A stretch of 64,000 bases of DNA from Candidatus Aminicenantes bacterium (GTDB taxonomy: Bacteria; Acidobacteriota; Aminicenantia; Aminicenantales; Aminicenantaceae). The notes under the pieces are model-generated. The model had not been told where the DNA came from. It did not search any database and saw only the letters and a program-made list of their open reading frames with translations. A program made the position numbers and the translations under genes. Of this stretch, positions 4,037 to 64,000 are shown one piece after another. Every line of letters starts with the position of its first letter. Position 1 is the stretch's first letter. The DNA lies in assembly GCA_046483285.1 (NCBI GenBank), contig JAWODN010000055.1:36530-100529 (forward strand). Direction: 5' to 3'.

Positions 4037-4065
4037 GGTATCTGCATCTGTTTTATTAAATTCGC

Positions 4066-4115
4066 TTAGCCTGACCTATTCATAAAAAAACGGCCAGCCC
4101 GGCCCGTTCATCATC
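4066..4115 (-). repeat. Mosaic-repeat terminal piece (CCTGACCTATTCAT-A7 then CGGCCAGCCCGGCCCGTTCATCA), facing the kinase start
   Basis: Reverse complement of the T7-ATGAATAGGTCAGG motif seen before other start codons. Lies 30 nt upstream of the kinase ATG on the minus strand. Confidence 0.7.
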
Positions 4116-4147
4116 CAGGTTATCATTCAGACAAGTGAAATATGGGT

Positions 4148-4912: not shown

Positions 4913-4978
4913 GTCCCCAATGTTGTCAATTGCGCCCCGGAAGTGAAAGCATCTCTGATGCCGTGAAACAAAAAGGCT

Positions 4979-5872: not shown

Positions 5873-5874
5873 GA

Positions 5875-6585
5875 TCAGAGTATTTCCTTTCTCAGAAGTT
5901 TGCCTTTATACAAAAACAGAATTTTTTCCCCGAAATTCCTGATCAGTTCCCGGTCGTGGGTGCATATAACCACCGTCGCGCCGTTCCGGTTGATTTCTTT
6001 GAACAGGCTCATGATTTCGAAAGCCAATTCCGTATCCAGGTTGCCGGTTGGTTCATCAGCCAGGATGATTTTGGGGTGGTTGACCACGGCCCGGGCTATG
6101 GCCACACGCTGCTGTTCGCCATAGGAGAGCTGAAACGGATAGTCCCACATTTTGTGCTGCAAATTGACCATCCGCAGCGCATTGAACACCCGCCTGCGGA
6201 TTTCTTTTCGGGGGATTCCTAAAATCTGCAGCACCACCGCCACGTTTTCAAAGACTTTTTTATGGAAAATCAGCCGAAAATCCTGGAACACGATTCCAAT
6301 AATTCTCCGCAAGGCATAAATTTTATAATCCGGAATGCGGAGAATGTTTCTCTGGTCTATGATGATTTGTCCCTGGGTCGGCAGGAGCTGCCGGAAAAGA
6401 ATTTTCAAGAGGGTGGTTTTTCCGGAGCCGCTGGGTCCGGTGACGAAACAAAAGTCGCCTTTTTCAATTTTAAAGGTCACATCGGATAAAGCCCATTTGG
6501 GTTTTTGGTACTGTTTCCACAGATGATAGACTTCAATCATTATTCTCTTGCCTGGCTTCTGTTTCCTTTCAGCAGGAATTTTCAT
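5875..6585 (-). CDS. ftsE: Cell division ATP-binding protein FtsE
   Basis: Walker [13 protein letters not shown] signature [14 protein letters not shown], Walker [12 protein letters not shown]. Abuts ftsX. Confidence 0.85.
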
Positions 6586-6680
6586 TATAGCTTTCCAAAG
6601 CTCTCATGAAAAGCCTGATGGCATATCTTTCTTTTTCCAGCCTTGCTTTTGCCTGAGGTTTTTATTATTATGCAGGTGCT

Positions 6681-7049
6681 ATGAACATGAAAGCGGTTTC
6701 CGCAGTGGCGGCGGGTTGGTTTGTCCCCGGTTTGGGACACATTTTGGCTGGAAAATATAAGCGAGCCGCGGTCTTTTTTTTGTGCATCACAGCGATGGCG
6801 GCTATGGGGCTATATATGGGGGGGAAAATCTATTCTTTTCAAACCGAGAATCCCTTAACCATGCTTGCTTTTTTTGCCGACCTCGGATACGGAATTCTTT
6901 ACTTTTTTTCAAAGCTAATGTCTTTCGGAGCCGGACAGTTGGATAAAACCACCTTTGAATTCGGCACCACTTATATCGCAGGAGCCGGGCTTCTCAATTA
7001 TCTGGTCGCATTAGATGCTTTTGATATCATCGCCGGGAAAAAACCATGA
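6681..7049 (+). CDS. Small polytopic membrane protein, hypothetical
   Basis: 122 aa with three or four hydrophobic helices (GWFVPGLGHILAGKYKRAAVFFLCITAMAAMGLY...). Confidence 0.45.
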   Translation: MNMKAVSAVAAGWFVPGLGHILAGKYKRAAVFFLCITAMAAMGLYMGGKIYSFQTENPLTMLAFFADLGYGILYFFSKLMSFGAGQLDKTTFEFGTTYIAGAGLLNYLVALDAFDIIAGKKP

Positions 7050-7222
7050 TTTTTCAAAGTCATCTTTTCACTATGATCCTCTATGCCGCTTTAGTTTCCA
7101 TTGTCCTGGCTCTGATCCGGAGAAACGGGAAAAGAGAAAGGATACGCTACGCCGTTTTTCTGTTCCTTATTATGACCGCAGGCGCTATACTATTCGGTTG
7201 GTTTATGTATTTGTTTATTTAA
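7046..7222 (+). CDS. Unlisted 58-aa two-TM membrane protein, start-stop coupled (ATGA) to the preceding ORF
   Basis: The ATG at 7046 overlaps the TGA of the upstream ORF. It translates as MIFQSHLFTMILYAALVSIVLALIRRNGKRERIRYAVFLFLIMTAGAILFGWFMYLFI. It is below the ORF-track size cutoff. Confidence 0.35.
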   Translation: MIFQSHLFTMILYAALVSIVLALIRRNGKRERIRYAVFLFLIMTAGAILFGWFMYLFI

Positions 7223-7258
7223 CCTGAACGATGACAATCACTTCTGAACGGCAGTTAT

Positions 7259-7312
7259 GGATGAGGGAGGAAGGCGGCCTGTCACGGGATGTCTCCCGTC
7301 CCTCCTTCTTTC
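7259..7312 (+). terminator. GC-rich dyad (GAGGGAGGAAGG...CCGTCCCTCCTTCTTTC), terminator-like, containing a G-module-like sequence
   Basis: Inverted repeat GGGAGG/CCTCCC around an inner ACGGGA/TCCCGT hairpin, followed by a T-rich run. Lies downstream of the small membrane gene and upstream of the GDH -10 TATAAT at about 7336. Confidence 0.3.
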
Positions 7313-7400
7313 ACTCATCCCCCTGGGGGCTCTTTCGCATTATAATAATATTTTTTAATATCCAGGCTTTCATCCGCCTGGGAAAAAAAAGGAGAACGCA

Positions 7401-10289
7401 ATGAAAAGCCTGCAAGAAATTGCCGAACAATCCTCATTAAGTTTGCAAGATTTAAAGGAAATCGAAGATATCATCCTCAGCCACGAACATTTTTCTCAGA
7501 AATCGGTGAGGAAAGAGATGGAGTGGTTTTTTACGCAGTTGGGAATGCCGGATTATTATTTTCAAACCACGCCTTTAAAAACCATCGCCATGCACATAGA
7601 GGCGGTCAAATCCAGCGAGGTGATGGCCTCTGTCAGCGCGGATAAAGACCTTATTATTGACATGCGCACGGAGTCGGAAGACGAAGCCATTTACCTGGTG
7701 GATGATGAGCATGACCACGCCTTGGAGGTGGAAAGGCGGATTGAGCAGAAATATCCTAATTTCCGCATCCATTCCTACCGGACTTCGGGCAAGGCTCTGG
7801 GACGCGAGCATTTGCGGATATACCTTGTGTACCGCCCCCAGATCGATATGAGCCGGCTATCACCCGAGGAAACCGACCTGAATAAAATCGCATGCCGGCG
7901 TTTTTTAGATACCGCAACCCCTGAGGCCAAGGAAAGATATGACAGGGTTTTGAAAAAGACGGTGGGGTGGGAAACCCCTTTGATAGAGGTCAGCCATAAA
8001 GAGGAAACCAATGAACTCAGAATCATCATCGTCACACCCAGAGATTCCAGCTCCCGGTTCTTTTCCAATGTCTCCGATGTGCTCAACTCGCAGGGACTGG
8101 TTTCAAACCGGAAGTATACCGAGCAGTTTCTTAATGGAAAGACGGTTTATGCCATTTATACTAAAAATATCGAAGATGAACACAAAGTCAAGGATTTGAT
8201 CGCTGACCTCAGCCTGCTTTATGTCATACCTCAAAGTCCCCTTTCCGATTTGTTCCGGGAGGGAAAACTGACGGCGCAAGAGACGGTCTTCGGGGTATCC
8301 GCCTGGAGTTTTGCTTATCAATTTCTCAGTGGATACAATGAGGAATACGTGAAGCTGGCTGAAGTGCTGAAGGATTCCCCGGAAATGCTGGGAATTCTCC
8401 GCAATCTTAAAACCAAACTGGTAAAGGACACTTATACTGAATCTGCGGTCTGGAACAGTCTGGTCCAAAACTATTTATTCCTCAAAAGATTATTTTTTGT
8501 TTTTGAAAAAAAATTTTGTCCCCACCATGAAGATCACGATATTCAAAAAGAAATGGAAGAATTGGAAAAAGAACTGAAGCGCCTGCCCGTCGATTTAGAA
8601 AAGAACATTTTTAAGGCGATAATCCAATTCATCAAAGTCACTCAGAGAACCAATTTCTACAAGTGCGAAAAGACATCGATTTCTTTTATGTTTGAGCCCT
8701 CATTTTTAAATGAAGTGGATTATCCGGAGAAACCGTACCAGATCTTTCATGTTTTGGGGATAGAATTTCGGGGCTTCCACATCCGTTTCAGGGATGTCGC
8801 CCGGGGAGGAATCCGCTTGGTCAGATCCAATGATTATCAATCTTTCATCAACAATTCGGATTTTATTTTTGATGAAAATTACAATCTGGCCTTGACCCAA
8901 CAAAAAAAGAATAAAGATATTCCTGAAGGAGGCTCAAAAGGAACCATCCTTCTGCGCTGGGGCTATCAGGATAAAGGCGAGATGGCCTTTAAAAAGTATA
9001 TCAACGGCCTTTTGGACCTTCTTCTCCCGAAGGAACAGATCCTCGATCACTATGGAAAAGAAGTGATTTTGTTTCTGGGACCGGATGAAGGAACCGCTGA
9101 ATTGATGGAATGGGCGTCCCTGCGGGCCCGCAAACTGGGATACCCTTACTGGAAAGGCTTTTCCACTGGAAAACCGGTGAGGAGAGGAGGCATCCCTCAT
9201 GACCTGTACGGCATGACCACCAATTCGGTTCATCAATATGTGCTGAAATCTTTGGAAAAGCTGGGATTGAAAGAAGAAGACGTAACCAAAGTCATGACCG
9301 GAGGTCCTGACGGCGATCTGGGAAGCAATGAGATTTTGATTTCCAAGGATAAGATTTTGGCTATTGTGGATGGGTCGGGAGTGCTTTATGATCCGGAAGG
9401 CATCAACCGCAAGGAACTGACCCGGCTGGCCGGTGAAAGAATAATGGTGGAAAATTTCAATAAAGAGCTTATATCCGAAAACGGATTTCTCGTCACCATT
9501 GAAGAAAAAGACGTGGTTCTCCCCGGAGGAGAAAAAGTGGAGAGCGGGATGGAATTCCGCAACTTTTTCCACCTGAATCCCAAGTTCCAGGCTGATCTTT
9601 TTGTCCCTTGCGGAGGGCGGCCCGCCTCCATCAATATCAACAATTGGAATAAGTTTATTGACAAAGAAGGGCATCCGCGTTTTAAAATGATTTCTGAAGG
9701 CGCCAATTTGTTTATCACTCAGGAAGCCCGGCTGCGTCTGGAAGAAAATGGGATCATTGTTTTTAAAGATGCTTCTGCCAATAAAGGGGGCGTCACCTCT
9801 TCTTCTATGGAAGTTTTTGCCAGCCTGGCTTTGAGTGATGAGGAGTATGAACAATACATGATGGTTAAGAACGGGAATATCCCTGAGTTCCGGCGGCGCT
9901 ATGTTGAAGAAATTATCGAACTGATCCGCGACAATGCCCGGCTTGAATTCGAGGTCATCGAAAAAGAAAGAGAAAAGAAATCCACGCCAAGGGTGGTGTT
10001 GACGGATTTAGTGAGCCAGAAAATCAACCAGGTGACGGACGCCGTCTACGCATCTGATTTGCATAAAGACAAGAAGTTGTTTGAAAATGCTGTCAAGGGC
10101 TGCTGCCCATCGGTTTTAATGGAGACGGTGGATTTTGATCAAGTTTTAAAGCGGGTTCCGGATGCCTATCTCAGGGCGGCTTTTGCTTCCCGCCTGGCCA
10201 GCCGGTATGTGTATTCTCTCGGCCTGAATGCCAATGAAATCGACTTTCATAAATATATCGACTTTACCCGCCGCGGAGAGATTCAATAG
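7401..10289 (+). CDS. Large NAD-specific glutamate dehydrogenase, L_115 class (about 110 kDa)
   Basis: The central region has the Glu/Leu/Phe/Val-dehydrogenase hallmarks: K-rich catalytic glycine motif DIPEGGSKGTILL, dinucleotide fold GGPDGDLGSNE and ISEGANLFIT. The 962-aa length matches the L_115 subclass. Confidence 0.6.
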   Translation: MKSLQEIAEQSSLSLQDLKEIEDIILSHEHFSQKSVRKEMEWFFTQLGMPDYYFQTTPLKTIAMHIEAVKSSEVMASVSADKDLIIDMRTESEDEAIYLVDDEHDHALEVERRIEQKYPNFRIHSYRTSGKALGREHLRIYLVYRPQIDMSRLSPEETDLNKIACRRFLDTATPEAKERYDRVLKKTVGWETPLIEVSHKEETNELRIIIVTPRDSSSRFFSNVSDVLNSQGLVSNRKYTEQFLNGKTVYAIYTKNIEDEHKVKDLIADLSLLYVIPQSPLSDLFREGKLTAQETVFGVSAWSFAYQFLSGYNEEYVKLAEVLKDSPEMLGILRNLKTKLVKDTYTESAVWNSLVQNYLFLKRLFFVFEKKFCPHHEDHDIQKEMEELEKELKRLPVDLEKNIFKAIIQFIKVTQRTNFYKCEKTSISFMFEPSFLNEVDYPEKPYQIFHVLGIEFRGFHIRFRDVARGGIRLVRSNDYQSFINNSDFIFDENYNLALTQQKKNKDIPEGGSKGTILLRWGYQDKGEMAFKKYINGLLDLLLPKEQILDHYGKEVILFLGPDEGTAELMEWASLRARKLGYPYWKGFSTGKPVRRGGIPHDLYGMTTNSVHQYVLKSLEKLGLKEEDVTKVMTGGPDGDLGSNEILISKDKILAIVDGSGVLYDPEGINRKELTRLAGERIMVENFNKELISENGFLVTIEEKDVVLPGGEKVESGMEFRNFFHLNPKFQADLFVPCGGRPASININNWNKFIDKEGHPRFKMISEGANLFITQEARLRLEENGIIVFKDASANKGGVTSSSMEVFASLALSDEEYEQYMMVKNGNIPEFRRRYVEEIIELIRDNARLEFEVIEKEREKKSTPRVVLTDLVSQKINQVTDAVYASDLHKDKKLFENAVKGCCPSVLMETVDFDQVLKRVPDAYLRAAFASRLASRYVYSLGLNANEIDFHKYIDFTRRGEIQ

Positions 10290-10295
10290 ACCGGC

Positions 10296-10368
10296 GCGAT
10301 GAATGATCCGGCAGATGTGGTGAGATCCGGCCCGCCCGCAAGGACGTTTTTTTATGAATAAGCCAGGC
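10296..10368 (+). repeat. Mosaic-repeat fragment (G-like GATGTGGTGAGATCCGGCCCGCCCG, then T7-ATGAATAAGCCAGG), facing the desulforedoxin start
   Basis: Shares GATGCGGTGAGATCCGGCCCG with 15225-15240 and 56622-56645. Ends in the T7-ATGAATA box 33 nt before the start at 10401. Confidence 0.7.
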
Positions 10369-10990: not shown

Positions 10991-11043
10991 TTCCTGTGTC
11001 AGTTGGAATAAAAGATTAAGCGCATTCTTAAGCTGAATAACAC

Positions 11044-11275
11044 ACGGGCCGGGATTGCCGCAGACGGCGACAATTCTTTAATCCAATGTCATTCCGAGGT
11101 GCGATGCGGCGAGGGATTTCTGGCGGCCTCGTCTGGGCGGCGGGTCCCGCCTTCACGAGGCAGGAAGGGATTGCCACGGCTTGCTGGCGCAAGCCTCGCA
11201 ATGACAAGGGGTGTGTCAGGAAGGAATTGCCGCAAAGAAACGATTTTCTGGGGTATAAGTCAGGCATATAAGGTT
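11044..11275 (+). repeat. Mosaic repeat (modules B, C-variant and pre-start motif), facing the porin gene
   Basis: CACGGGCCGGGATTGCCGCAGACGGCGACAATTCTTTAAT (B), then ...CACGAGGCAGGAAGGGATTGCCACGGCTTGCTGGCGCAAGCCTCGCAATGACAAGGGG (C, 3' half identical to 15400-15458 and 56190-56248), then GGGTATAAGTCAGGCATATAAGG before the ATG at 11280. ORFs 11028-11267(-) and 11086-11271(+) lie inside it and are spurious. Confidence 0.8.
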
Positions 11276-15171: not shown

Positions 15172-15633
15172 TGCAGCCATGGGAGCGGGAGATGGATCGC
15201 CGCCCCCATGGCCGCAAGATGCGGTGAGATCCGGCCCGGATGAATTATTTTTTTATGAGTTCATTATGAGTATAATACACCGTGAAGGATGAAAATGATT
15301 CCAATGTCATTCCCGGAGCGGAGCACTTTTGAGTCTGTCATTCCGAGACACGCAGTGCCTCGGAATCCCTGACTGCTTCGTATGAGCGGTGGGTTCCGCT
15401 TTCACGAGGCAGGAAGAGATTGCCACGGCTTGCTGGCGCAAGCTTCGCGATGACAAGGGGCATGTCGTCCCGGGGAGCGGAGCAGCGGGAATCTTAGAGT
15501 GCCTCGGCTAATGATTCGGAACCGGCTCATCAGACGAAGCCGAATAAGATCCTTACGGCCTGCTTCGCAGGCCTCAGGATGACAGCGGAGCTGTCATTTT
15601 CTAAGGTATAGGTCAGGATAAGGTATAGGCGAA
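15172..15633 (+). repeat. Mosaic repeat, modules H/G-F-C-D, facing nadA
   Basis: H/G is CCATGGGAGCGGGAGATGGATCGCCGCCCCCATGG...GATGCGGTGAGATCCGGCCCGG. F (15247-15336) is T7-ATGAGTTCAT, TATAAT at 15271, then ACACCGTGAAGGATGAAAATGATTCCAATGTCATTCCCGGAGCGGAGC. C is 15337-15462. D is 15463-15633 and ends in CTAAGGTATAGGTCAGGATAAGGTATAGGCGAA before the ATG. About 95% identical to 56034-56400. Confidence 0.85.
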
Positions 15634-16548: not shown

Positions 16549-16715
16549 ATTCATTATGTATAACCTGACCTATTCATAAAAAAATTGCGATGTTTTTGTA
16601 ATCTCTTTCTTATCCGCGATAAGCATGGTTTTTAGTGATGCGCCTCGCATGTGCGGCAATCCCGGCCCGTGAATAATTCAGGTATAATACACCGTGAACC
16701 AGGAATTCTAATCTG
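16546..16715. repeat. Mosaic repeat (ATGAATTCAT box overlapping the nadA stop, module A inverted, B-start inverted, F-like GGTATAATACACCGTGAACC)
   Basis: ATGAATTCAT at 16545-16554. CCTGACCTATTCAT-A7-TTGCGATGTTTTTGTAATC at 16564-16600. GCGGCAATCCCGGCCCGTGAATAATTCAGGTATAATACACCGTGAACC at 16651-16700. Confidence 0.8.
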
Positions 16716-26950: not shown

Positions 26951-27550
26951 GCCTGACCTATTCATAAAAAAATTGCGATGTTTTTGCAATCCCTTTTTTA
27001 TCAGCGATAAGCATGGTTTTTAATGAAAGATCAAATAGAACGTTTTTCATTTTTCAATTGTTATTTTAATCGCAATTTTTTTACCCTTCGGGCGGGCATG
27101 CCACTTTGTCATTGCGAGGCTTGCGCCAGCAAGCCGTGGCAATCCGTTTCTGCCTCGTGAAAGCGGAACCCACCGCCCATACGAGGCAGTCAGGGATCCC
27201 TGGTCGCTTCGCTCCCCGGGGCGACATTGAATTAAAGAATTGTCGTCGTCTGCGGCAATCTCGGCCCGTGAATAGGTCAGGTTAGAAAATCGTTTCTTTG
27301 TGCCCATGGGGGCGGGATGATGGATAAGCCGGCCCGTATGAAGGCTGAGCGGGCAGGGTTCCTCTCCGCAGGAGAGGAGAGCGAAGCCGGAATCGGAGCG
27401 GATGTCCTCGCTGGGGACATCCGCGTGGCGGCGATCCATCTCCCGCTCCCATGGGCACAGTTCAAAAGTGATTGTCATGGTACACGGTGTATTATACTCA
27501 TGATGAATTCATAAAAAAATTAACCGGCAATCCAGGCCCGCTGGATGCCA
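26951..27550 (-). repeat. Mosaic repeat in minus orientation, modules F-H-B-C-E/A, facing the purN start
   Basis: Read on the minus strand: F (27519-27455, with the ATGAATTCAT box at 27503-27512 and TATAAT), the H nested palindrome (27462-27298), B (27292-27230), C-variant (27228-27095), then the E end and A (27092-26952: GCCCGAAGGGTAAAAAAATTGCGATTAAAA...GATTGCAAAAACATCGCAAT-T7-ATGAATAGGTCAGG) 45 nt upstream of the purN ATG. ORFs 27047-27478(-) and 27317-27514(+) inside it are spurious. Confidence 0.85.
27298..27462. repeat. Nested-palindrome element (H): 35-bp terminal inverted repeats TGCCCATGGGrGCGGGAkGATGGAT...GCCGGCC around two internal perfect palindromes
   Basis: 27301-27335 is the reverse complement of 27427-27462. 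Inside are CCTCTCCGCAGGAGAGG and GGATGTCCtcgctgGGGACATCC. A single-copy relative lies at 15178-15216. Confidence 0.75.
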
Positions 27551-36037: not shown

Positions 36038-36640
36038 GGATGAGGAACGGGAGGGAGCGGCCGGAGATGCGGGGCGTTATCCGCCGACTGCACTCTTTGC
36101 AACGAGAGACCGGTTTTCTAAGTTGTAAGTTATACAGACTGAATGAAGAGCGGGCGGGAGCCGCCGGAAAGGGGAGTGCTGTTTATCGCCATTTTTTTAT
36201 GGATTCAGGATGTGTATAATAGATTTTCTAACCTGAATTATTCACGGGTCGAGATTGCCGCAGACGACGACAATTCTTTAATTCAATGTCGTCCCGAGGA
36301 GCGGAGCGACGAGGGATCTGTGAGTGCTTTCGTCAGGCCATATTGATAACGGGTTGCCAATTCGAAGCAGTCCGGGATCCTTCGCTCCGCTCAGGATGAC
36401 ATTAAATTAATGAAAGGTCGTCACTTCACTGCGAATGCCCTGCAACAAAGCAGATGCGGTGAGAGTCGGCCCGCCCGAAGGGTAAAAAAATTGCGATTAA
36501 AATAAAAATATGAAAATGAAAAACTTTCCATTTGAACTTTCAATAAAAATCATGTTAATCGCTGATAAAAAAGGGATTGCAAAAACATCGCAATTTTTTT
36601 ATGAATAATTCAGGCTAAGGTATAAGTCAGGATAGGTTAA
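36038..36640 (+). repeat. Mosaic repeat, modules G-G-F(degenerate)-B-E plus pre-start motif, facing ppiD
   Basis: Two G copies (36038-36075 and 36118-36190). T7-ATGGATTCAGGATGTGTATAAT at 36193-36220. B at 36235-36300. The BE element 36235-36613 is about 95% identical to 56405-56789. Ends in AGGCTAAGGTATAAGTCAGGATAGGTTAAG at 36611-36640. ORF 36143-36346 inside it is spurious. Confidence 0.85.
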
Positions 36641-39657: not shown

Positions 39658-39692
39658 GCATGTGTGTAATACGCCACGAACCATGAAAATCG
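39658..39692 (+). repeat. F-module fragment (ATGTGTGTAATACGCCACGAACCATGAAAATCGG), promoter-like, 18 nt before the iadA RBS
   Basis: Matches ATGAGTATAAyACACCGTGAACCATGAAAATGA of F modules at 15261-15296 and 56051-56086. The minus-strand ORFs at 39417-40117 are spurious. Confidence 0.5.
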
Positions 39693-45904: not shown

Positions 45905-45995
45905 CATTCTGACCTATACCTTAGCCTTACCTCTGTTTAAAAAAATCGATCCCTCGCGGCCATGGGTGGGGGCAATGTTCGGCCCGTTCATCACA
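45905..45995 (-). repeat. Mosaic-repeat terminal piece in minus orientation (pre-start motif, A7, H/G-like CGCGGCCATGGGTGGGGGC, GGCCCGTTCATCA), facing the TPR gene
   Basis: Reverse complement GGTAAGGCTAAGGTATAGGTCAG lies immediately 5' of the TPR ATG. It matches AGGCTAAGGTATAAGTCAGG (36611-36630) and CTAAGGTATAGGTCAGG (15601-15617). Confidence 0.7.
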
Positions 45996-53087: not shown

Positions 53088-53139
53088 AAATCAATCTTCT
53101 CCTTCCGCGTTTCTATAAAAAGCCCATACGCCGCATTAT

Positions 53140-53192
53140 TCCTTGCCGGCATGTCATTGTCATCGCAATTTTTTTACCCTTCGGGCAAGATG
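53140..53192. repeat. E-module fragment (GTCATTGTCATCGCAATTTTTTTACCCTTCGGGC)
   Basis: Matches TTTTAATCGCAATTTTTTTACCCTTCGGGCGGGC (27064-27092) and the reverse complement of 36462-36492. Confidence 0.6.
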
Positions 53193-55242: not shown

Positions 55243-55947
55243 ATGAATTTTTTTCAGCGGTTTTCAGGTGTGATATTCAATCCTCAGCTCACTTTCCAAT
55301 TCCTGGCTCATAAACCCGTTTGGATAGACGCCCTGGTGGCGGTGTTGATTTTTTCCGCTGTTTTTTCCTATCTGACTTTTCCTTTTTCTCAACAGGACAA
55401 CTTGCGGGCATTTGAAAACAACTTTGAGCTTAGAGAACGTGTCGGAGAGGACCGTTTCAATCAAATGATGGAATCTATGCGGAATCCATCGTCAACTCAG
55501 CGCCTCATATCTTCCACCCTGGGGCCTGTGAGCTTGGGAATCGGTTTGCTGATTTCTTCATTAGTCCTTCTCTTGCTTGGAAAAATGACATCCACGCAAG
55601 GTCATTATGTGCAGATATTTTCTGTGTATGTGCATGCCAATTTTATCGACAAAATCCTTGGCGGCGCCATCAAGCTACCTTTGATCCATACAACGGAATC
55701 AGTTGTCCAAACCACCACCAGTCTGGCCCTGTTTTTCCCGAAGCTGGAAATCATTTCCCCTGCTTTTATTGTGTTGAGCCAATTTGATCTTTTCCAAATC
55801 TGGCTTTTCGGCATTCTGGCTTACGGGCTCGCTGCGGTCCTGAAAATATCCATCAAAAAGGCTCTTTTTATTTCTTATGGGTTTTTCCTTATAAAAGCCC
55901 TTCTTTATACCGGACTGGGGCTCCTGACCCTTCAATACATTTCTTAA
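55243..55947 (+). CDS. Yip1-domain-like polytopic membrane protein (YknW-type partner)
   Basis: ATG one base after the ATPase stop. MNFFQRFSGVIFNPQLTFQFLAHKPVWIDALVAVLIFSAV...: five TM helices with the Yip1-like N-terminal pattern. The ORF track starts it 87 nt too early inside the ATPase gene. Confidence 0.5.
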   Translation: MNFFQRFSGVIFNPQLTFQFLAHKPVWIDALVAVLIFSAVFSYLTFPFSQQDNLRAFENNFELRERVGEDRFNQMMESMRNPSSTQRLISSTLGPVSLGIGLLISSLVLLLLGKMTSTQGHYVQIFSVYVHANFIDKILGGAIKLPLIHTTESVVQTTTSLALFFPKLEIISPAFIVLSQFDLFQIWLFGILAYGLAAVLKISIKKALFISYGFFLIKALLYTGLGLLTLQYIS

Positions 55948-55997
55948 TCCCCCTCCGCCATTCACCCCTCTTTGTAAAATCTGGTATACTAAGATGT

Positions 55998-56887
55998 GGA
56001 TGATGAACGGGCCGGGATGGCCGCATATCGCCATTTTTTTATGAATTCATCATGAGTATAACACACCGTGAACCATGAAAATGATCCCAATGTCATTCCC
56101 GGAACGGAGCGCTTTTGAGTCTGTCATTCCGAGGCACGCAGTGCCTCGGAATCCCTGACTGCCTCGTATGGCCGGTGGGTTCTGCTTTCACGAGGCAGGA
56201 AGGGATTGCCACGGCTTGCTGGCGCAAGCCTCGCAATGACAAAGTGGCATGTCTTCCCGGAGAGCGGATCGACAGGAATCTTAGAGTGCCTCGGCTAATG
56301 AGTCAGAACCGGCTCATCAGACGAATCCGAATAAGATCTTCACGGCCTGCTTCGCAGGCCTCAGGATGACAGCGAAGCTGTCATTTTCTAAGATATAGGT
56401 GAGGCTTGCCTGGCCTATTCACGGGCCGGGATGGCTGCAGACGACGACAATTCTTTAATTCAATGTCGTCCTGAGGAGCGGAGTGACGAGGGATCTGTGA
56501 GTGCTTTCGCCAGGCCGTATGGACAATGGGTTGCCAATTCGAAGCAGTCCGGGATCCTTCGCTCTGCTCAGGATGACATTAAATTAATGAAAGGTCGTCA
56601 CTTCACTGCGACGAGCCTCAAGCCGGAAGATGCGGTGAGATCCGGCCCGCCCGAAGGGTAAAAAAATGGCGATTAAAATAAAAATATAAAAATGAAAAAC
56701 TTTCTATTTGAACTTTCAATAAAAATCATGTTAATTGCTGATAAAAAAAGGATTGCAAAAAAATCGCAATTTTTTTATGAATAATTCAGGATAACATATG
56801 TGTGTTTTACAGAAATGATGAATATCGCAGCTAACAAAGGATTGACAAAAGTATCGCCATTTTTTTATGAATAGGTCAGGATAGGTT
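55998..56887 (+). repeat. Largest mosaic repeat block (0.9 kb), modules G-F-C-D-B-E plus extra and terminal T7-ATGAATAGGTCAGGATAGGTT, facing the DUF4388 gene
   Basis: G at 55998-56033. F at 56034-56126 (ATGAATTCAT at 56041-56050). C at 56127-56252. D at 56253-56400. B and E at 56405-56789. An AGGATTGACAAAA -35-like string at 56826-56838. Terminal motif ends at 56887, and the ATG is at 56888. ORFs 56115-56369 and 56431-56661 inside it are spurious. Confidence 0.85.
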
Positions 56888-57976
56888 ATGGAAAAACTCC
56901 GGCTGCATGGAAATCTCAAACAAACACCTTTCGCTTTTCTGCTTTTCCGGATTTGGAAGTCCAAAGGCTCAGGAATTCTAAAAATACGGAATCATGGAAG
57001 GGAAAGGAGAGCCGGTTTTCTAAAAGGAAATCTGGCTCCAGGGATCCTTTCCTTTCCCGGAGATGATTTTCTTCATGATCTGGCTAAGCGAAAATTGATC
57101 ACGGAGCCGCAATTACGAAACATCCTTAAAACAGCCCGGGAAAAAGAAACTTCACCCCTCCGGTGTATTCTGCAAAAAAAATTGTTTTCTCCACTTCAAA
57201 TTTGGGATGATATGTCTAAACACATAGAGAGTCAGCTGTTTCCCGCTTTCGACTGGACGGAAGCTGAATTTTTTTTTGATACTGAATTGGAACCGACAAA
57301 CCGCACCCCTTTATTTTTCATCGAGACCCCGGCATTTATTCTGGACGGAATAAGAAAAATGTCCCACTTCCAATTGATGGCGTCGCATCTTCCTTCCCCG
57401 GAAAATAAATGCCTCTTTCTTCCATCTGAGCACACAAAATCCTTGAGATGGCATCCTTCTGAAACCTACGTTTTCCGCCTGTTACAGAAAGAGCCCTCCT
57501 TGGCTGAAATTCACCAAAACAGCGAATTAGGAATCGAGGAGACCAATAGAGTGCTTTTCGCTATGCACGCGCTGGAAATGACAGGAGATTTTCGAAAAAG
57601 CATTCAAAAACCGGGTATCAGCGGCCCGGAAATTCATCGGATATTTGAGCATTTCAACCGATGTTATATCTATATTTTTAAATTTCTTTCCAAAGAAACC
57701 GGCCCGGTGACTTTCAAAATTTTGGAAAAATGCCTGTTTGATGTCAAATCACATCTGCCGTCCGGGTTTCATAATCTGCGCTTTGAATCCAACGGCCGGA
57801 TCACTTTGGGTTCAACCCCAGCCACGCCCACCGGACTTCCCGGGGGGATGGACCGGAATGATTTCTTGAAAGGCCTCAATGAAATTTTGAACGCGGAAAT
57901 TCTCGCCGTGAAAAAAACCCTCGGCAGCGAGCACGAATCCAATCTGGTCAAAAACCTGAACGCCTTGATAACATGA
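56888..57976 (+). CDS. DUF4388-domain protein, hypothetical
   Basis: N-terminal GNLKQTPFAFLLFRIWKSKGSGILKI, typical of DUF4388. The rest has no recognisable catalytic motif. Confidence 0.45.
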   Translation: MEKLRLHGNLKQTPFAFLLFRIWKSKGSGILKIRNHGRERRAGFLKGNLAPGILSFPGDDFLHDLAKRKLITEPQLRNILKTAREKETSPLRCILQKKLFSPLQIWDDMSKHIESQLFPAFDWTEAEFFFDTELEPTNRTPLFFIETPAFILDGIRKMSHFQLMASHLPSPENKCLFLPSEHTKSLRWHPSETYVFRLLQKEPSLAEIHQNSELGIEETNRVLFAMHALEMTGDFRKSIQKPGISGPEIHRIFEHFNRCYIYIFKFLSKETGPVTFKILEKCLFDVKSHLPSGFHNLRFESNGRITLGSTPATPTGLPGGMDRNDFLKGLNEILNAEILAVKKTLGSEHESNLVKNLNALIT

Positions 57977-58048
57977 AGGCAAACCGCAAGCAAATTTTGG
58001 GAATATTGATTTTATTAACTTTATTAACCATAGGACTTCTGTTTAAAA

Positions 58049-58972
58049 TTGGCTGCTGAAAAAAGAAACCTGGTCATCATTCTCGGCCCCACCGGAGTCG
58101 GGAAAAGCGCAACCGCTGTGAAACTGGCCCGGTGCTTTTCCGGAGAAATCATCAATTGTGATTCCATGCAGGTCTATCGCGGCTTTGATATCGGCACCGA
58201 TAAGATTTCAGAGGAGAAAAAGCAAGGAATCCCTCACCATCTGCTGGACGCGGCCAGCCCGGCTTCTCAATTCACCGCGGCTGATTTCGTCCGCCTCTCT
58301 CTCAAGGCGATGAAGGAGATCCGCGGCCGGGGAAAACTTCCCATCATCACCGGAGGGACGGGGTTGTATCTGAAAGCCTTGCTGGACGGCCTGTTTCCGG
58401 AAGATAGCAAAGACCTCTCTATCAGGAATAATTTAAAAAAAGAAGCCTCATCTAAAGGCTGGGATGAGTTGTGGTCCCGGCTGCTGCAAGTCGATCCGGA
58501 ATACGCCCAAAAAATCAGCCCCAATGACAAAGTCCGGATTATCCGGGCCTTGGAAGTGCATCAGGCTACAGGTATCCCTCTCTCCCGTCATTTCCCCAAG
58601 ACCGAACCGTTTATAAAAAATGACAACCTCGTCATTATCGGATTGAAACTGGACCGCGAATCTTTATACCAACGGATAAACAACAGGGTGGAGGCCATGA
58701 TGGAAAAAGGACTGACGGCTGAAGTAAAAAACCTGATCGGCCGCGGAGTTCCGGAAAGCGCCCCCTCTTTCCGGGCTCTGGGATATAAATATATCCTGTC
58801 CTCCCTGCATGGCGAAATATCCTTGACCGAAGCCGTCCGCTTGACCAAAAGAGACACCCGCCGCTATGCCAAGCGTCAAATGACATGGTTTAAAAAAATG
58901 AGGGGAATCCATTGGTTTTCTCCTTATGATTTTCCGCTCATAAAAAAACATGTGGAAGAGAGGCTGGAATAG
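58049..58972 (+). CDS. miaA: tRNA dimethylallyltransferase
   Basis: P-loop GPTGVGKS, SMQVYRGFDIGTDK and the tRNA-binding helix region. Confidence 0.85.
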   Translation: MAAEKRNLVIILGPTGVGKSATAVKLARCFSGEIINCDSMQVYRGFDIGTDKISEEKKQGIPHHLLDAASPASQFTAADFVRLSLKAMKEIRGRGKLPIITGGTGLYLKALLDGLFPEDSKDLSIRNNLKKEASSKGWDELWSRLLQVDPEYAQKISPNDKVRIIRALEVHQATGIPLSRHFPKTEPFIKNDNLVIIGLKLDRESLYQRINNRVEAMMEKGLTAEVKNLIGRGVPESAPSFRALGYKYILSSLHGEISLTEAVRLTKRDTRRYAKRQMTWFKKMRGIHWFSPYDFPLIKKHVEERLE

Positions 58973-60235
58973 ATGGAGAAAGCATTTTTGGTTCATCTGG
59001 TCATAGACCGGCAGGGGGAAAGGGAAAGGGAAGATTCTCTCCAGGAACTCAAGGGCCTGGTTGAATCCGCCGGAGGGAAAGTAGTGGGGGAATCACATCA
59101 AAAACGGGGTTCCATTCATCCTAAATTTTTGATCGGCCCCGGAAAGGCTGAGGAAATCGCCCGTTTGAAAGACGAGACGGACGCCGATTTGGTGGTTTTC
59201 GATCATAATCTAACTCCCGGACAGCAAAGAGCCCTGGAAGACAAAATCAACAGCAAGGTCATCGATCGAACCCAGTTGATTCTGGATATCTTTGCCCAGC
59301 GGGCCCACAGCAACGAAGGCAAACTCCAAGTTGAATTGGCTCAATTGAATTATCTTCTTCCCAGATTGACTGGAAAAGGCCAGGCTCTGTCACGGTTGGG
59401 AGGAGGAATCGGAACCAGGGGGCCTGGTGAAAAAAAATTAGAAGTGGACCGGAGACGCATTCAGAAACGGATATCCAAAATCAAACAGGATCTCAAAAAA
59501 ACACAAAAGCGGCGGATGGATCAGAGGCAAAGGCACCGCCGGAGTCCCGTCCCGATCGTCTCTCTGGTGGGATACACCAACGCAGGGAAATCCACTCTGT
59601 TCAACCGTTTAACCGGAGATGACAAATTCGTTTCCAGTAAATTATTCGCAACGCTGGATCCGGTCATCCGGAGAATGAGTTTTTCCGACGGAGCCTATGT
59701 TTTTTTCACCGATACAGTCGGCTTTCTCAGAGAACTGCCTTCCGAATTGAAAACCGCTTTCCGTGCCACTTTGGAAGAAATCCACGAGGCTGACTGCATC
59801 TGCCATATCATTGATATCACATCACCTCATTACCGGGAGCATATCCATGCCGTGGAATCTATTTTAGCTGAACTGGAAGTTATGGATATTCCGGTAATAA
59901 AAGTCTTCAACAAGATAGATGCCGTCTCATCCCCTCCGGACTATTCCAAAATAAACAGACGCCTGGCCCAAGACTCCGTGTATATATCCGCCCGCAATGG
60001 AACCGGGCTGGAGCAACTGAAACAGAAAATCCGGGCGGTTGTTTTTAAGTCAAAAAATGTTTATTATCTTGAAGTGCCGAGAAAGAAAAAAAACTTAATT
60101 CATTCTTTTCCGAAATGGTCCATTGTGCTGAAAAGAGTAGAAACAGACGGGAATGTGAAAATAAAAATTCTGGCCGAGCCTAAAGACATGCTGAATTTTT
60201 TACCCTATATTCAAAAAGGAGAAACCCATTGGTGA
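58973..60235 (+). CDS. hflX: GTPase HflX
   Basis: HflX N-domain ([17 protein letters not shown]), G1 [11 protein letters not shown]3 DTVGF and G4 NKID. Confidence 0.85.
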
Positions 60236-61578
60236 GAGCAAAAAATATATTTATTGTCAGTATGGGAATGCTTTTGATCGCCGGAGCCTGCGCCCCCCGC
60301 CATGTGCCTCCGCCCACTATACACATCGGATCGCTTCCCCACGCTGAAACCGCGGAATTGTCCCTGGATGCCAGAATTCTGGTCGAAGATGCCTGGACTC
60401 TCATCCAGCAGGGCCGGGGAGAAAAAGCAATCAACCTCATTTCAAAATTGGGGCCGGATCATCCTTTTTACCTGGTGGGAATGGGCTATGCTCATTACGT
60501 GCTCGAGGACTTGCAAAAAGCGGAGGAATTTCTCACTGCCGCCGCCGCCCAGGAACCTGATCTTATTCTGGAGCATATCGGGCTGGCACAATTGTACGGG
60601 GAGACCCAGCGCGAAGACTTGGCTTTCGCCCAATACCGTGAGGTATTAAAACAAGCTCCTGACCATCCCTGGGCCCGGCCGCGGTATAATGAGATCCAGC
60701 AAAGACGGACAGAGGAAACCTTGAACGCCGCACAGGACGCCCGCGAAAGCGGTGATACGGAATCCGCGCAAGCGGCGTTTTTAAAAGCTTTATATTACTC
60801 CCCCGCCAATATCCAGGCCCATATGTCCCTGGCGGAAATCTATCTTGAGGAAGAAGAAACCGAAAAGGCCCTGGTTCATCTCAAGGCCGCACGCACGGAA
60901 AGCCCAAACGATCCCCGTATTCTCAAATCCTATGGAGAAGCCCTGTTTCAAACGGAGCAATTCAAACAAAGTTTAGAGGTCTATGAGCGAGTGGCTGACC
61001 TGCGCCCTGAAGATTCCCAGGCCGAGCAAAGGATTGAGCAATTGAAAAACCGCCTGGGGATTTTCGAGCTCCCCAGCCAATATGACAACATACCGGCCCG
61101 GGATGCTGTCAGCAAAGAGGATGTGGCGGGTTTGATTGGAGTTAATTTCGGTGCTTATCTCGAAGAAACCGGGAAAAATCCTCCCATCCTTATTGACATT
61201 TCCACTTCCTGGGCGACTGAATTCATTTTGCAGACCACGGCCCTGGGTTTGCTGGACATTTACCCCAACCACACCTTCCAGCCTGAAAAAATTGTGACCC
61301 GGGCCCAGATGGCGGAAATTCTTTTCCGCTTGGTTCGTTATTTAAAAGAGCAGGGACACACTTTTGTCCAGCAGGTATCGCCTCAAAACATCGAAATTGC
61401 GGATGTTTCTTCAGACAACTTTTACTACCACCCCATAATAATGATGATATCTTATGATTTCATGAGCCTGTCCCGGGGGCAACGGTTCCATCCCGACAGG
61501 CCGGTCACGGGAAATGAAGCCATCCGGCTCATAAACATCGTCTTATCTCAAATGGATGAAAGTCACCAACCGGGCTAA
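60229..61578 (+). CDS. Lipoprotein with TPR repeats and a C-terminal SLH-like domain
   Basis: Lipobox LLIAGAC, at least five TPR units, and an SLH-like tail ([42 protein letters not shown]). Confidence 0.55.
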
Positions 61579-61584
61579 ATATAT

Positions 61585-62166
61585 ATGGCAAGATGGAGTT
61601 CTTTTTTTACCATTCCCAATATCATCACCTTGGCCCGGATACTGCTGATTCCATTTTTTCTGTATTTTATGCTCCAAAAACAGCTTCAGACGGCCTTCAT
61701 CATCTTTTTGCTGGCTGTTGGTACGGATTTTGTCGACGGCGCCGCCGCCAGAATATTGAATCAAAAATCAAAGTGGGGAGCTTTGCTGGATCCGGCCGGG
61801 GACAAACTTCTCATGACCACTTCTTTTATTCTCCTGACCATCCCTTCCATTAGCTCTCCGAATCATCTTCCGGTTTGGCTGACAGTCGGAGTCATCAGCC
61901 GGGATATTTTCATTGTCACCGGTTCCGCCATGGTTTATCACAAAATCAGACAGACCCGTTTCCCTCCCACACTGCTGGGAAAAATGAGCACCATTATGCA
62001 GATGGTTACTCTGGTTCTGGTGCTTTATTATAACTTTCTTTCCAGGGAGATGCCGCTTCTCCAATGGGTCTATCTGCTTACCTTTACCCTGACTGTTTTT
62101 TCCGGGATCCATTACGCCGCCATAGGGGTTTCCTGGATCAAGAACGCTGGAAACAAGAGGGGATAA
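61585..62166 (+). CDS. pgsA: CDP-alcohol phosphatidyltransferase (likely phosphatidylglycerophosphate synthase)
   Basis: D-G-x2-A-R-x8-G-x3-D-x3-D motif (DGAAARILNQKSKWGALLDPAGDKL) and 4-5 TM helices. Confidence 0.65.
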   Translation: MARWSSFFTIPNIITLARILLIPFFLYFMLQKQLQTAFIIFLLAVGTDFVDGAAARILNQKSKWGALLDPAGDKLLMTTSFILLTIPSISSPNHLPVWLTVGVISRDIFIVTGSAMVYHKIRQTRFPPTLLGKMSTIMQMVTLVLVLYYNFLSREMPLLQWVYLLTFTLTVFSGIHYAAIGVSWIKNAGNKRG

Positions 62167-62187
62167 TAAGTTATTCAGTTTGACGGG

Positions 62188-63636
62188 CTATGCGGATGGG
62201 TCGATAAATCCCTTGCGGAGAGTCATCCATATAATCTGAAGGTCCAGCAGCAGCGACCAATTCTGGATATAATAAAAGTCATATTCCAGGCGTTTATCAA
62301 AATCACAGTCCTGCCGCAAGCCATGAACCTGGGCCCACCCCGTCAATCCGGAATTGACCTTATGGCGCAGCATATATTTAGGTAATTTCTCCCGGAACCG
62401 CTTGACAAACACCTCTCTTTCGGGGCGGGGGCCGACCAGGCTCATCTCCCCCTTCAAAACATTCCACAGCTGAGGGACTTCATCTATGCTGAACCGGCGC
62501 AGAAACCGGCCGATTTTGGTAATCCGGGGATCATTAGGCCGGCACATAACCGGTCCGCTCTTTTGTTCGGCTCCGCTGACCATGGTTCGAAATTTGTGCA
62601 TAATGAACTTCTTGCCGTCCAGTCCCACTCTCTCCTGGTGATATAGAACCGGCCCCTTTGAAGTGAGCTTGATAAATAAGCCGATGATTATATAGAAAGG
62701 TGAAAACAAAACCAAAACCAAGGCGGAAATTGAAATATCCATTATCCGCTTCACAAGCCGCATGGGTCCCCGCATGGGAGGTTCATCCACACTGATCACC
62801 GGAAATCCATCCAAATTTTCCAGCCGGGCTCTCAGGGTTAAAAACTGAAATAAATCCGGAATCAAGCGGACGTTGACGGCATGCTTATTCACCACCTTCA
62901 ATGTCTTGAGAATACGAGAATAATTATTTAAATCCAAAGCCACGTAAACATCGGAAATCTGATGTTCTTCAATAGCCGAATCCAATGCATCCAAAGCACC
63001 TAAAACCTTTATTCCGCCGTTGACATCAATCCACTCGCCGGGCCTGGCGTCATCATCCAGAAACCCTTTAACCTTAAACCCCAAGTCCTTGTAATTAAAT
63101 AATTTCTGAGCAACCGTCCGCCCCATCTTGCCAGCACCGACAATAAGGGCATTCTGCAGATCCAGCCCGCGGGCGTACCGGCGCTTTTTGAAATGATAAA
63201 TTTGATTGCGCAGAAACAACAAAACAAGCGGCAGCCCCACAAAATAGACACCGAGGAATCCATGCGAAATCTTGAAAGTCATTTGAAACAGAGGCGCCGG
63301 CCCTTGAGAGTATGCATAGAGGTAATTCAAAACACCCAGCACGATCAGTATTGTTAAGCCGGCATTGATCAGAATGTGCAGAAAATCATCTATCCCTGTT
63401 CTCTTCAGCCGGGTTTTATAGAAACCCTGAAAAAAAAATATCACCAAATGGGTGATCAGAAACAAGGGGAAAACCATAATATAAGGCTTTAAGGGAGGAA
63501 TGCCTTTCTCCGGACTAACCGGAACAACGTACCCGTAAAACCGGAAAAAATAAGCATAAAAATAAGTCAGTGTGATTCCAATGATATCTCCGGCCAGATA
63601 CCATCCAATCAGCCTTTGCCGCTGTTTTCTAAACAT
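62188..63636 (-). CDS. Undecaprenyl-phosphate sugar phosphotransferase (WbaP/exopolysaccharide priming transferase family)
   Basis: N-terminal TM bundle, a central NAD-like linker and the C-terminal bacterial sugar-transferase domain (SLVGPRPEREVFV, DxxYxxNWS-like). Confidence 0.8.
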   Translation of the reverse strand: MFRKQRQRLIGWYLAGDIIGITLTYFYAYFFRFYGYVVPVSPEKGIPPLKPYIMVFPLFLITHLVIFFFQGFYKTRLKRTGIDDFLHILINAGLTILIVLGVLNYLYAYSQGPAPLFQMTFKISHGFLGVYFVGLPLVLLFLRNQIYHFKKRRYARGLDLQNALIVGAGKMGRTVAQKLFNYKDLGFKVKGFLDDDARPGEWIDVNGGIKVLGALDALDSAIEEHQISDVYVALDLNNYSRILKTLKVVNKHAVNVRLIPDLFQFLTLRARLENLDGFPVISVDEPPMRGPMRLVKRIMDISISALVLVLFSPFYIIIGLFIKLTSKGPVLYHQERVGLDGKKFIMHKFRTMVSGAEQKSGPVMCRPNDPRITKIGRFLRRFSIDEVPQLWNVLKGEMSLVGPRPEREVFVKRFREKLPKYMLRHKVNSGLTGWAQVHGLRQDCDFDKRLEYDFYYIQNWSLLLDLQIIWMTLRKGFIDPSA

Positions 63637-64000
63637 GTCGGTTTATGAAATCCGTCCATTTGTGCTGCATATAATCTTCGATTTTATTTTTAAAAGACTC
63701 CCGGGAAAAATTCAGCGCGTTTTCTCGCAGAAGGTTTTTATTAAAGGTCAACCGGTCAAACTTGTCAAGTGCAGCCGCTAATCCGGCCGCACCCGCCTGG
63801 TTGAATAAAACACCTGTTTTTCCGTGCTGAACCGTCTCAAGCGCCCCTCCCCGCCCTAAAGCAATCACCGGGGTGCCGCAGGCCTGGGATTCCAAAACAT
63901 TAATACCGAAATCTTCCTCCCCCGGCATGATCAACGCCCGGGCTTCCTGATAAATCCGTTTCAGTTCCTCTGAAGACACCTCTCCTGAAAAATGAATATG
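63629..64000 (-). CDS. Glycosyltransferase family 1 (GT4-like), C-terminal part only; gene continues beyond the window end
   Basis: EDFGINVLESQACGTPVIALGRGGALETV is the E-x7-E GT-B C-terminal motif. The frame is open through position 64000. Confidence 0.7.
   Translation of the reverse strand, partial: HIHFSGEVSSEELKRIYQEARALIMPGEEDFGINVLESQACGTPVIALGRGGALETVQHGKTGVLFNQAGAAGLAAALDKFDRLTFNKNLLRENALNFSRESFKNKIEDYMQHKWTDFINRHV

Follow-up and report, generated by a model that had tools for sequence, protein, structure and literature searches.

Intergenic repeats of an uncultured Aminicenantes bacterium as a probable nest of miniature transposable elements with IS1380-type ends

Introduction

Correia elements of Neisseria and the enterobacterial ERIC sequences (enterobacterial repetitive intergenic consensus, also called IRU, intergenic repeat units) are small transposon-like intergenic repeats having inverted ends and occurring in full as well as internally deleted forms; often co-transcribed with their neighbours, they fold into hairpins at the RNA level and are able to provide promoters or to change the stability of mRNAs. 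Nesting, internal deletion variants and effects on neighbouring genes are well known for miniature transposable elements with inverted repeats (MITEs), Correia, ERIC, RUP, Nezha and others among them. Correia elements duplicate TA, and we know of no autonomous partner of either Correia or ERIC. The insertion sequences (IS) of the IS1380 family are recognized, according to ISfinder, by a 4-5-bp duplication and by ends beginning with CC. The present study deals with the intergenic repeats in a 64,000-nucleotide stretch from a Candidatus Aminicenantes bacterium (GenBank assembly GCA_046483285.1, contig JAWODN010000055.1, positions 36,530 to 100,529)—referred to hereafter as the window—with emphasis on its positions 55998-56887, and describes a MITE with IS1380-type ends (family 1) together with a second family of hairpin units (family 2).

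Within the IS1380 family, ISEcp1 and ISPme1 carry strong outward promoters that drive neighbouring genes (PMC9330008), and the transposases of the family have served as an outgroup from prokaryotes for piggyBac, a transposon with TTAA as its insertion site (PMC10813416). Among the repetitive extragenic palindromes (REPs), those tagged by CGTC or TGTC possess a stem of 8-9 bp starting with AT, a loop of 4-5 and a short CCA-like tail (Di Nocera et al. 2013; PMC3733652). References concerning the Correia elements are listed in PMC11602168.

Results

Family-1 element

Based on the results given below, it appears that non-autonomous transposable elements, nested in one another, make up the flagged region rather than one modular repeat family, a reading to which a probability of roughly 85% may be assigned. 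The sequence-only reading that had drawn attention to this DNA divided the repeats into modules (G, F, C, D, B, E and a terminal piece, always in this order with some of them skipped, plus H) and took all of them for a single mosaic family similar to the bacterial interspersed mosaic elements (BIMEs). The noncoding, modular, repeated and intergenic character of the DNA is borne out; in place of the single family, however, there are MITEs and a separate family of hairpins containing modules C and D. Judged by its ends and flanks, the B-E-terminal series is demonstrably a single element, a MITE derived from an IS1380-family insertion sequence, and the supposed fixed order of B, E and terminal amounts to no more than the left-to-right anatomy of that one element. 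Module G, as it had been defined, proved to be a mixture of a variant left end (55998-56033 and 4078-4117) and the 3' arm of the MITE hairpin, its segment 15211-15238 matching 56622-56649, i.e. the latter arm.

For defining the elements, each right end was paired with the nearest left end, both in the window and in the loci (designated below by L numbers) from a scan for the terminal motif in one genome per species. More than 114 stretches were among the matches listed, most of them in Aminicenantes bins, and the repeats occur almost only there. The family-1 element is present in more than 100 copies in at least 20 Aminicenantes genome bins, its canonical length being 251-255 bp. The terminal inverted repeats of 13 bp, CCTGRMYTATTCA ... 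TGAATARKYCAGG, are found in 69 paired elements, and columns 1-13 pair with columns 250-262 in the alignment of 30 copies; module B begins with CCTGAATTATTCA or CCTGACCTATTCA, which reads as the terminal piece (TGAATAATTCAGG or TGAATAGGTCAGG) does on the complementary strand. Within the window, the terminal motif TTTTTTTATGAATARKYCAGG occurs seven times, with no occurrence expected from 100 shuffles. Concerning the length, the mode at 251-255 bp is sharp (30/69 elements in the 250-259-bp class), the other forms measuring 37-58 bp, 146 bp in a symmetric form, and 330-472 bp, the last including the nested copies of the window.

The 4 bp on the two sides of the element are identical in 33 of the 69 cases, shuffled flanks giving a mean of 7.4 and a maximum of 17 in 2000 trials; with at most one mismatch allowed, the number rises to 53. 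The duplicated sequence is mostly TTAA or CTAA. The possibility that TTAA is just an extension of the inverted repeat could be ruled out: non-palindromic flanks are present in 48 elements, and in 17 of these the two sides agree as direct repeats, in none as inverted ones, so that the flanks are target-site duplications lying outside the inverted repeat. A 5-bp match was seen in three of the 69 elements in addition to the one at 16564-16682 (Table 1), and the ends of the element begin with CCTG. Both the B-E-terminal series and the pieces composed of G plus terminal are MITEs with 4-bp duplications, an origin that the sequence-only reading had itself named as incompatible with its repeat family.

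A profile for which only canonical elements of other species (32 in number) were used detects the copies of the window. Each of the two long ones is split by it, profile positions 1-34 matching a left end and positions 61-253 a right part, which means that the 382-383-bp versions of the window carry an insert near position 35-60. Scans of metagenomes for two window-specific pieces, ATTGCCACGGCTTGCTGGCGCAAGC and GATTGCYGCAGACGRCGACAATWC, returned no matches.

It should be noted that the 146-bp elements (L004, L071, L104 and L110) are symmetric, with a right-type end at both termini, and that the 252-bp form contains an internal decayed right-type end, CCTGAAAGGTAAAAAAATGGCGAT (columns 114-138 of alignment A2); the latter form therefore resembles a hairpin module fused to a 146-bp element. 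The two ends found 1500 bp apart in L107, considered as a candidate insertion sequence, in fact belong to two MITEs flanking an oxidoreductase gene.

Autonomous partner

An element with the same type of ends and with its own transposase is located in another Aminicenantes bin (L076, positions 2392-4011). It covers 1620 bp between the ends CCTGGATTATTCATAAA and TTTATGAATAATCCAGG, has TTAA on both sides, and encodes a protein of 409 residues matching PF13701 (DDE_Tnp_1_4, E=3.4e-147) and NF033539 (IS1380 family transposase, E=3.7e-114), both scores exceeding the curated cut-offs. This transposase is 44-49% identical to plasmid genes annotated as IS1380 family transposase. The ends of the repeats being those of an IS1380-family insertion sequence in a related genome, the earlier view that they match no known family could not be retained. 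At two Bacteroidetes loci, homologous transposases (45-52% identity) adjoin the same end, and one insertion-sequence subgroup is thus present in two phyla. From the shared ends we infer that the MITE would be mobilised in trans by an IS1380-family DDE transposase, common ends and an unrelated interior being what is usually found for MITEs of this sort.

Concerning the Bacteroidales/Geofilum end TTTTTTTATGAATAATTCAGG, it adjoins an IS1380-family transposase gene in L048 (351-1514) and L035 (5-415); in L007, L051, L073, L092 and L112 it stands in the same flanking context, with no transposase found in the DNA covered.

Orthologous sites

The flagged region has a counterpart in a contig of GCA_964499255.1 (L116) that is 97% identical to window 55589-64000. 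Its positions 1-459 match window 55589-56046 and its positions 463-7601 match 56861-64000; the intergenic region thus measures 130 bp in that strain and 940 bp in the window, 814 bp being absent from L116. A more distant, syntenic relative (CAZDJZ01, loci L117 and L119) shares 73-79% DNA identity with the window. Its intergenic regions are free of repeats and short at three sites at which the window carries them: Yip1 to PatA_N (54 bp in L117 versus 940 bp), rubrerythrin to porin-like (52 bp in L119 versus 289 bp) and nifU to nadA (69 bp in L119 versus 476 bp). Between alr and nifU the situation is the reverse, a MITE being present in CAZDJZ01 and none in the window.

The MITE at this alr-nifU site (L119 9215-9440) is reversed, and its termini read TATG...CATA instead of CCTG...CAGG, i.e. 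they have changed symmetrically. A rare variant of the right end, TGAATAAGYCAGG (10347-10367), precedes the same small desulforedoxin-like gene in the window and in L119; in the latter (~4935-4950) only 15 bp of it are left, CCTGAATAAGTCAGG, suggesting an old insertion common to both genomes that has been preserved mainly at its gene-side end. It should also be pointed out that several bins syntenic with the window, L054, L091, L117 and L119 (CAZDJZ01) among them, carry the Aminicenantes MITE, and that their titles, 'uncultured Eubacteriales', are probably wrong.

Family-2 hairpin units

The second family consists of module C, module D and the insert inside B-E, i.e. of units 113-125 nt long, each folding as a single long hairpin (-39 to -68 kcal/mol). 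The units start with TGTC in 12 of 13 cases and end with GACA in all 13. Target duplication was considered for these units as well and rejected, their flanks being inconsistent; no linked transposase was found. Among the loci examined, the family is confined to the window and its nearest relatives, L049, L054 and L091. The end hairpin of module C, TGTC-ATTCCGAGGCAC-gca-GTGCCTCGGAAT-CC, starts with AT, has a CC tail and a stem of 12 bp, the other units differing in this respect.

Family-2 units are found both beside the MITEs and within them, the nested unit being located at the apex of the MITE's own hairpin. With the unit at the hairpin tip, a single extended hairpin is retained in the fold of the 249-nt stretch composed of both (36232-36480; -109.6 kcal/mol, z=-6.9). 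The two long copies of the window share their insert at the same place and with 92% identity, so that the composite has spread after nesting, and the unit at 27108-27225 combines two unit types in a chimera, which suggests that shared ends have recombined. That modules appear to be skipped would then result from recombination between the many similar ends, combined with nesting and internal deletion.

Orientation and hairpin of the element

Of 59 elements, 41 have a gene start within 150 nt in front of their right end, and 12 have one in front of their left end; for elements lying between tandem genes, the corresponding numbers are 18 and 4 (two-sided binomial p ~0.004). The distance between the right end and the start codon has a median of ~26 nt and is below 20 nt in 17 of the 41 cases. 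Such a bias in orientation and position would fit an outward-directed promoter as in ISEcp1 and ISPme1.

Over its left 100 nt, the canonical element folds into a hairpin supported by covariation, 96.9% of the cells being paired. Compensatory changes affect 13 of the 35 pairs, as compared to 6.2 +/- 1.4 in shuffles (none of 500 reaching the observed value) and to no more than 5 in slid controls. The hairpin is rich in G-U pairs and has a mean energy of -47.3 kcal/mol on the given strand versus -31.2 kcal/mol on the reverse complement, the given strand being the stabler one in all 30 copies. We know of no need of a DDE transposon for an internal one-strand hairpin, and the simplest reading is selection on RNA transcribed toward the downstream gene. 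The covariation and the much better fold on one strand suggest a role of the 100-nt hairpin as RNA, and because the hairpin is conserved on that strand only, the element is probably transcribed in the forward direction, toward the gene.

Three candidate signals were considered, two of which were rejected. The arrangement TTGCAA-17-TATGAA is unsupported as a sigma-70 promoter by the consensus scan, its TTGCAA being absent in other species, and is retained as a putative promoter at most; a sigma-54 promoter in the right half is at variance with the GG/GC spacing as read by eye; and an intrinsic terminator is contradicted by an A-run, not a T-run, following the hairpin, no terminator having been called in the elements. 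As for the PatA_N gene, its counterpart in L117 (5947-6000) has a TATACT box 9 nt before the ATG, so that its transcript would have practically no leader. In the window, this native box persists at 55985-55990, now 900 bp from PatA_N, with the MITE end 7 nt from the ATG. An identical PatA_N gene is carried by L001, a contig of Logan SRR31818007, which ends (positions 1-33) inside the right end of the MITE.

Repeats of the window

The window contains chromosomal housekeeping genes, such as nadA, alr, purN, glnA, those for a SurA-like isomerase and ribosomal protein L19, trmD, rimM, scpAB and ispH (all according to Pfam); no tRNA genes were found in it. Its NadA protein is 100% identical to one that NCBI assigns to a Candidatus Aminicenantes genome bin. 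The features recognized are summarized in Table 1. The repeats are real, but by all-against-all BLAST they amount to ~2.8 kb, i.e. 4.4% of the window, instead of the ~4.5 kb and 7% originally estimated, and significant similarity extends to nine intergenic regions, not to at least 12. Each repeat segment falls between genes, as had been stated. The comparison yielded 12 repeated segments, one pair of which reflects coding similarity between two ABC-transporter genes: the 86-bp repeat 6035-6120/54993-55078 lies inside two paralogous ATPase genes and does not belong to the intergenic families. At 7250-7275, 39658-39692 and 45905-45930, the similarity is below significance.

The long copies were confirmed by BLAST of 55950-56900 against the window: 56033-56404 matches 15247-15617 (372 bp, 91.4%) and 56416-56794 matches 36239-36618 (380 bp, 91.8%), followed by 56148-56262 versus 27200-27086 (92.2%), 56645-56790 versus 27097-26952 (89.7%), 56122-56242 versus 11087-11207 (84.3%) and several further, shorter matches. 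The identity of 90-97% attributed to the copies thus applies, as 91-92%, to the two long pairs only, the remaining pairs being assessed at 78-90%.

With regard to known families and genes, no Rfam family matches the repeats: nothing in the window reached the gathering score, the sole match at E<=1 was a chance one to SCARNA18, and the canonical element gave no match. Neither a tblastn search for transposases nor Pfam revealed any mobile-element gene within the window, in agreement with the sequence-only reading.

Table 1 Repeat features of the 64,000-nucleotide window
Feature	Position	Strand	Evidence, ends and flanks	Remarks
Short family-1 MITE remnant	55997..56046	+	Variant left end GGATGATGAACGGGCCGGGATGGCCGC then ATCGCCATTTTTTTATGAAT; right end interrupted by the 814-bp block	78% match to minimal element 4117-4078; weak profile match 55961-56046 (E=0.0016); also in conspecific L116, whose match stops exactly at 56046
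814-bp block	56047..56860	+	Absent from L116 (97% identical strain)	Rest of module F, two family-2 hairpins, the 382-bp family-1 MITE and most of the partial MITE
Family-2 hairpin (module C), 118 nt	56123..56240	+	Paired-end search; ends TGTCATTCC...GCAATGACA; -68.4 kcal/mol, one long hairpin	Copies 11088-11205, 15337-15454 and chimeric 27108-27225
Family-2 hairpin (module D), 120 nt	56251..56370	+	Sequence, folding	Copy 15464-15583
Family-1 MITE, 382 bp (modules B, E and one terminal piece)	56409..56790	+	End pairing; alignment with canonical 252-bp elements; flanks mismatch, no clear target duplication	Nested family-2 unit 56465-56577; other-species profile matches 56409-56441 and 56600-56790
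Partial family-1 MITE, right third	56805..56880	+	Profile positions 178-253, E=3.7e-11; motif 56860-56880	Right inverted repeat ends 7 nt upstream of the ATG of the PatA_N-domain gene (56888)
Family-1 MITE, 383 bp	36232..36614	+	CTAA at both flanks; end pairing, alignment, profile	Nested family-2 unit 36288-36400; right end 58 nt upstream of SurA-like gene (36673)
Family-1 MITE, 330 bp	26952..27281	-	Flanks CTAA and CCAA	Nested chimeric family-2 unit 27108-27225; right end 45 nt upstream of purN (26906)
Internally deleted family-1 MITE, 119 bp	16564..16682	-	5-bp duplication TTATA	Profile matches 16682-16639 (positions 1-44) and 16633-16564 (positions 184-253)
Minimal family-1 element, 50 bp	4070..4119	-	Only left-end variant and right end; flanks ATAA and CTAA	33 nt upstream of NtrY-like kinase gene (4036)
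Degenerate family-1 MITE	11033..11264	+	Inserted at TTAAG	Nested family-2 unit 11088-11205; 15 nt upstream of porin-like gene (11280)
Decayed family-1 remnant	10298..10367	+	Hairpin 3' arm and right end TTTTTTTATGAATAAGCCAGG; weak profile match	
Second nest, nifU-nadA	15177..15633	+	BLAST, sequence, paired-end search	H-type fragment 15177-15210; MITE hairpin arm and T-run 15205-15262; module F; family-2 units 15337-15454 and 15464-15583; right-end-like piece TATAGGTCAGG (15607-15617)
Internal family-1 fragment	53110..53192	-	Profile positions 105-188, E=1.3e-4; BLAST match	
Third small repeat (module H), 159 bp	27300..27458	-	Inverted ends of ~25 bp, GTGCCCATGGGAGCGGGAGATGGAT	27333-27417 has up to 4 matches in related loci
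Short-MITE-plus-F junction copy	27471..27540	-	TTTTTTTATGAATTCATCATGAGTATAATACACCGTG; 84% match to 56008-56082	

Module F was also considered as a decayed left end of family 1; there is some similarity by eye, without support from the profile search. The stretch 7250-7330, upstream of a glutamate dehydrogenase gene, is a separate GC-rich palindrome, GGATGAGGGAGGAAGG...CCTTCTTTCACTCATCC, with no significant similarity to these families.

Discussion

The mechanism that may be proposed for family 1 starts with an IS1380-family transposase that would cut or copy the element and insert it at YTAA sites, the insertion taking place in AT-rich DNA just upstream of genes, with the AT-rich right end toward the gene. 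As a best guess, the right half might then carry, or itself provide, the signals for transcription and ribosome binding used by the downstream gene. The hairpin, for its part, might act as an RNA element, either as a leader structure or, where the upstream transcript ends, as a stabiliser or barrier. Transcription continuing from the native promoter, the hairpin then serving as leader or barrier, is an equally plausible reading.

Several observations weigh against the interpretation as a nest of mobile elements, or at least against parts of it. A clean duplication is absent at 56409-56790 and has one mismatch at 26952-27281; the MITE and the L076 insertion sequence share only 17-21 bp per end, their interiors being unrelated; and there is no transposase in the window, the autonomous copy in L076 belonging to a different genome bin. 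No ends were recognized for module F or for the 372-bp F-C-D composite. At the junction in L116 (ATGAAT-AGG-TTTTTTATGAATAGG), the sequence does not correspond to a clean empty site, nor to the simple product of recombination between the 21-bp direct repeats 56026-56046 and 56852-56872, and L116, L117 and L119 all come from short-read bins, in which assembly errors in repeats are possible. With regard to transcription, no sigma-70-type promoter is called at the right end by the consensus scan, TATGAA lacking the final T, and a forward promoter is predicted in the AT-rich half of only 13 of the 30 canonical copies, compared with 9 of 30 on the reverse strand.

Of the explanations competing with the nest of mobile elements, the one closest to the sequence-only reading sees in the repeats a host-maintained REP/BIME-like mosaic, composed of short palindromes with linkers and a fixed order, with a structural or transcript-stabilising role, spread by a REP-associated tyrosine transposase (RAYT) or by recombination. 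The palindromic hairpins of modules C, D and the B-E insert, devoid of target duplications and of a linked transposase, would suit it, as would the clustering of the units into composites and the TGTC tag, recalling the CGTC/TGTC-tagged REPs for which no dedicated transposase is known (PMC3733652). The B-E-terminal framework, however, has inverted ends, direct duplications and an IS1380 partner; the units measure 113-125 nt instead of 20-40 nt and have no GTAG head; a RAYT is absent among the genes of the window; and the orientation of the units does not alternate regularly across defined linkers. As an account of the whole, this mosaic is thus unlikely, the analogy with BIMEs retaining some value for modules C and D only, i.e. 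for hairpin units without duplications or an identified transposase.

Very unlikely, in turn, is the view that the repeats are structured cis-regulatory RNAs or small RNA genes multiplied by duplication, with their ends and flanks being incidental. It would account for the covarying 100-nt hairpin with its strong strand asymmetry as well as for the constant orientation and the position just before start codons, but the identity of the flanks, the transposase-bearing element with the same ends and the presence or absence at orthologous sites all indicate transposition. Moreover, even at E up to 1 Rfam offers no match of this kind, and the downstream genes—nadA, purN and those for the SurA-like, porin-like, kinase and PatA_N proteins—are functionally unrelated. 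Rather than competing with the MITE, this view seems to describe a function that the MITE may have in addition.

Remnants of a decayed protein-coding gene or gene family can be practically dismissed: open reading frames (ORFs) of up to 143 residues can be drawn through the repeats, yet every one of the six frames of the consensus element contains 2-9 stops—the small ORFs being artefacts, as the sequence-only reading had proposed—the ORF 27047-27478 has no Pfam match, and conservation tracks the base pairing and the element ends, not a reading frame. Just as negligible is an artefact of collapsed or chimeric repeats in a metagenome-assembled contig, since, although short-read contigs do break at repeats (L001 ends 33 nt before the gene), the element with its own flanks and duplications recurs at more than 100 places, the assemblies concerned being independent and representing at least 20 genome bins.

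Returning to the nest of mobile elements, a further-reaching possibility, which we consider doubtful, is that the 252-bp element represents, beyond selfish DNA, a portable regulatory cassette kept before many housekeeping genes: its left half would be a strand-specific structured RNA ending, protecting or gating the upstream transcript, and its AT-rich right half (...AGGTCAGG) would supply the transcription start and the ribosome-binding site for a gene 0-60 nt downstream. If so, transposition would rewire gene expression genome-wide.

The MITE belongs to a kind of element already known and is new for the uncultured Aminicenantes; in the literature searched, no IS1380-derived MITE and no repeat from Aminicenantes was described. 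Its remaining interest lies in its wide occurrence within an uncultured lineage, in the covarying hairpin specific to one strand and in the position close before start codons. For annotation, the elements account for small ORFs that are spurious, for long intergenic regions that seem "empty" and for breaks of contigs in Aminicenantes bins, and a profile of the 252-bp element would mask the repeats. For the study of mobile elements, they offer a well-documented MITE of the IS1380/piggyBac lineage with a TTAA-type target, many host species and a nested second hairpin family. For regulation, the bias in position and orientation together with the one-strand covarying hairpin make a testable case of a transposon that may carry expression signals, and not a new kind of system.

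Compared with the systems already described, the Aminicenantes MITE shares with the IS1380 family the short inverted ends beginning with CC, the 4-5-bp duplication and the TTAA-type target, its autonomous partner carrying a DDE_Tnp_1_4/NF033539 transposase. It differs from the IS1380 elements in being non-autonomous (~252 bp), with an interior unrelated to the insertion sequence and a conserved strand-specific 100-nt hairpin; besides, its gene-facing end corresponds to the transposase-upstream end of the insertion sequence and not to the promoter-bearing end of ISEcp1. From Correia and ERIC, small intergenic repeats with inverted ends like itself, it differs by an unrelated sequence and by having an autonomous partner. 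Family 2 resembles the REPINs and REPs, including the CGTC/TGTC-tagged repeats (PMC3116915; PMC3733652), in being palindromic, without duplications or a nearby transposase, and the tagged repeats in particular in the terminal TGTC, in clustering and in each half being itself a hairpin. Its stems are, however, much longer than 8-9 bp, the unit has 113-125 nt, and neither a GTAG head nor a RAYT was seen; on account of the longer stems, family 2 is not filed among the CGTC/TGTC-tagged repeats, although these are the closest ones described. Finally, as in the BIMEs of E. coli, several types of intergenic repeats are combined here, with units present or absent between copies, but the combinations appear to come from nesting, deletion and recombination rather than from ordered REP units with set linkers.

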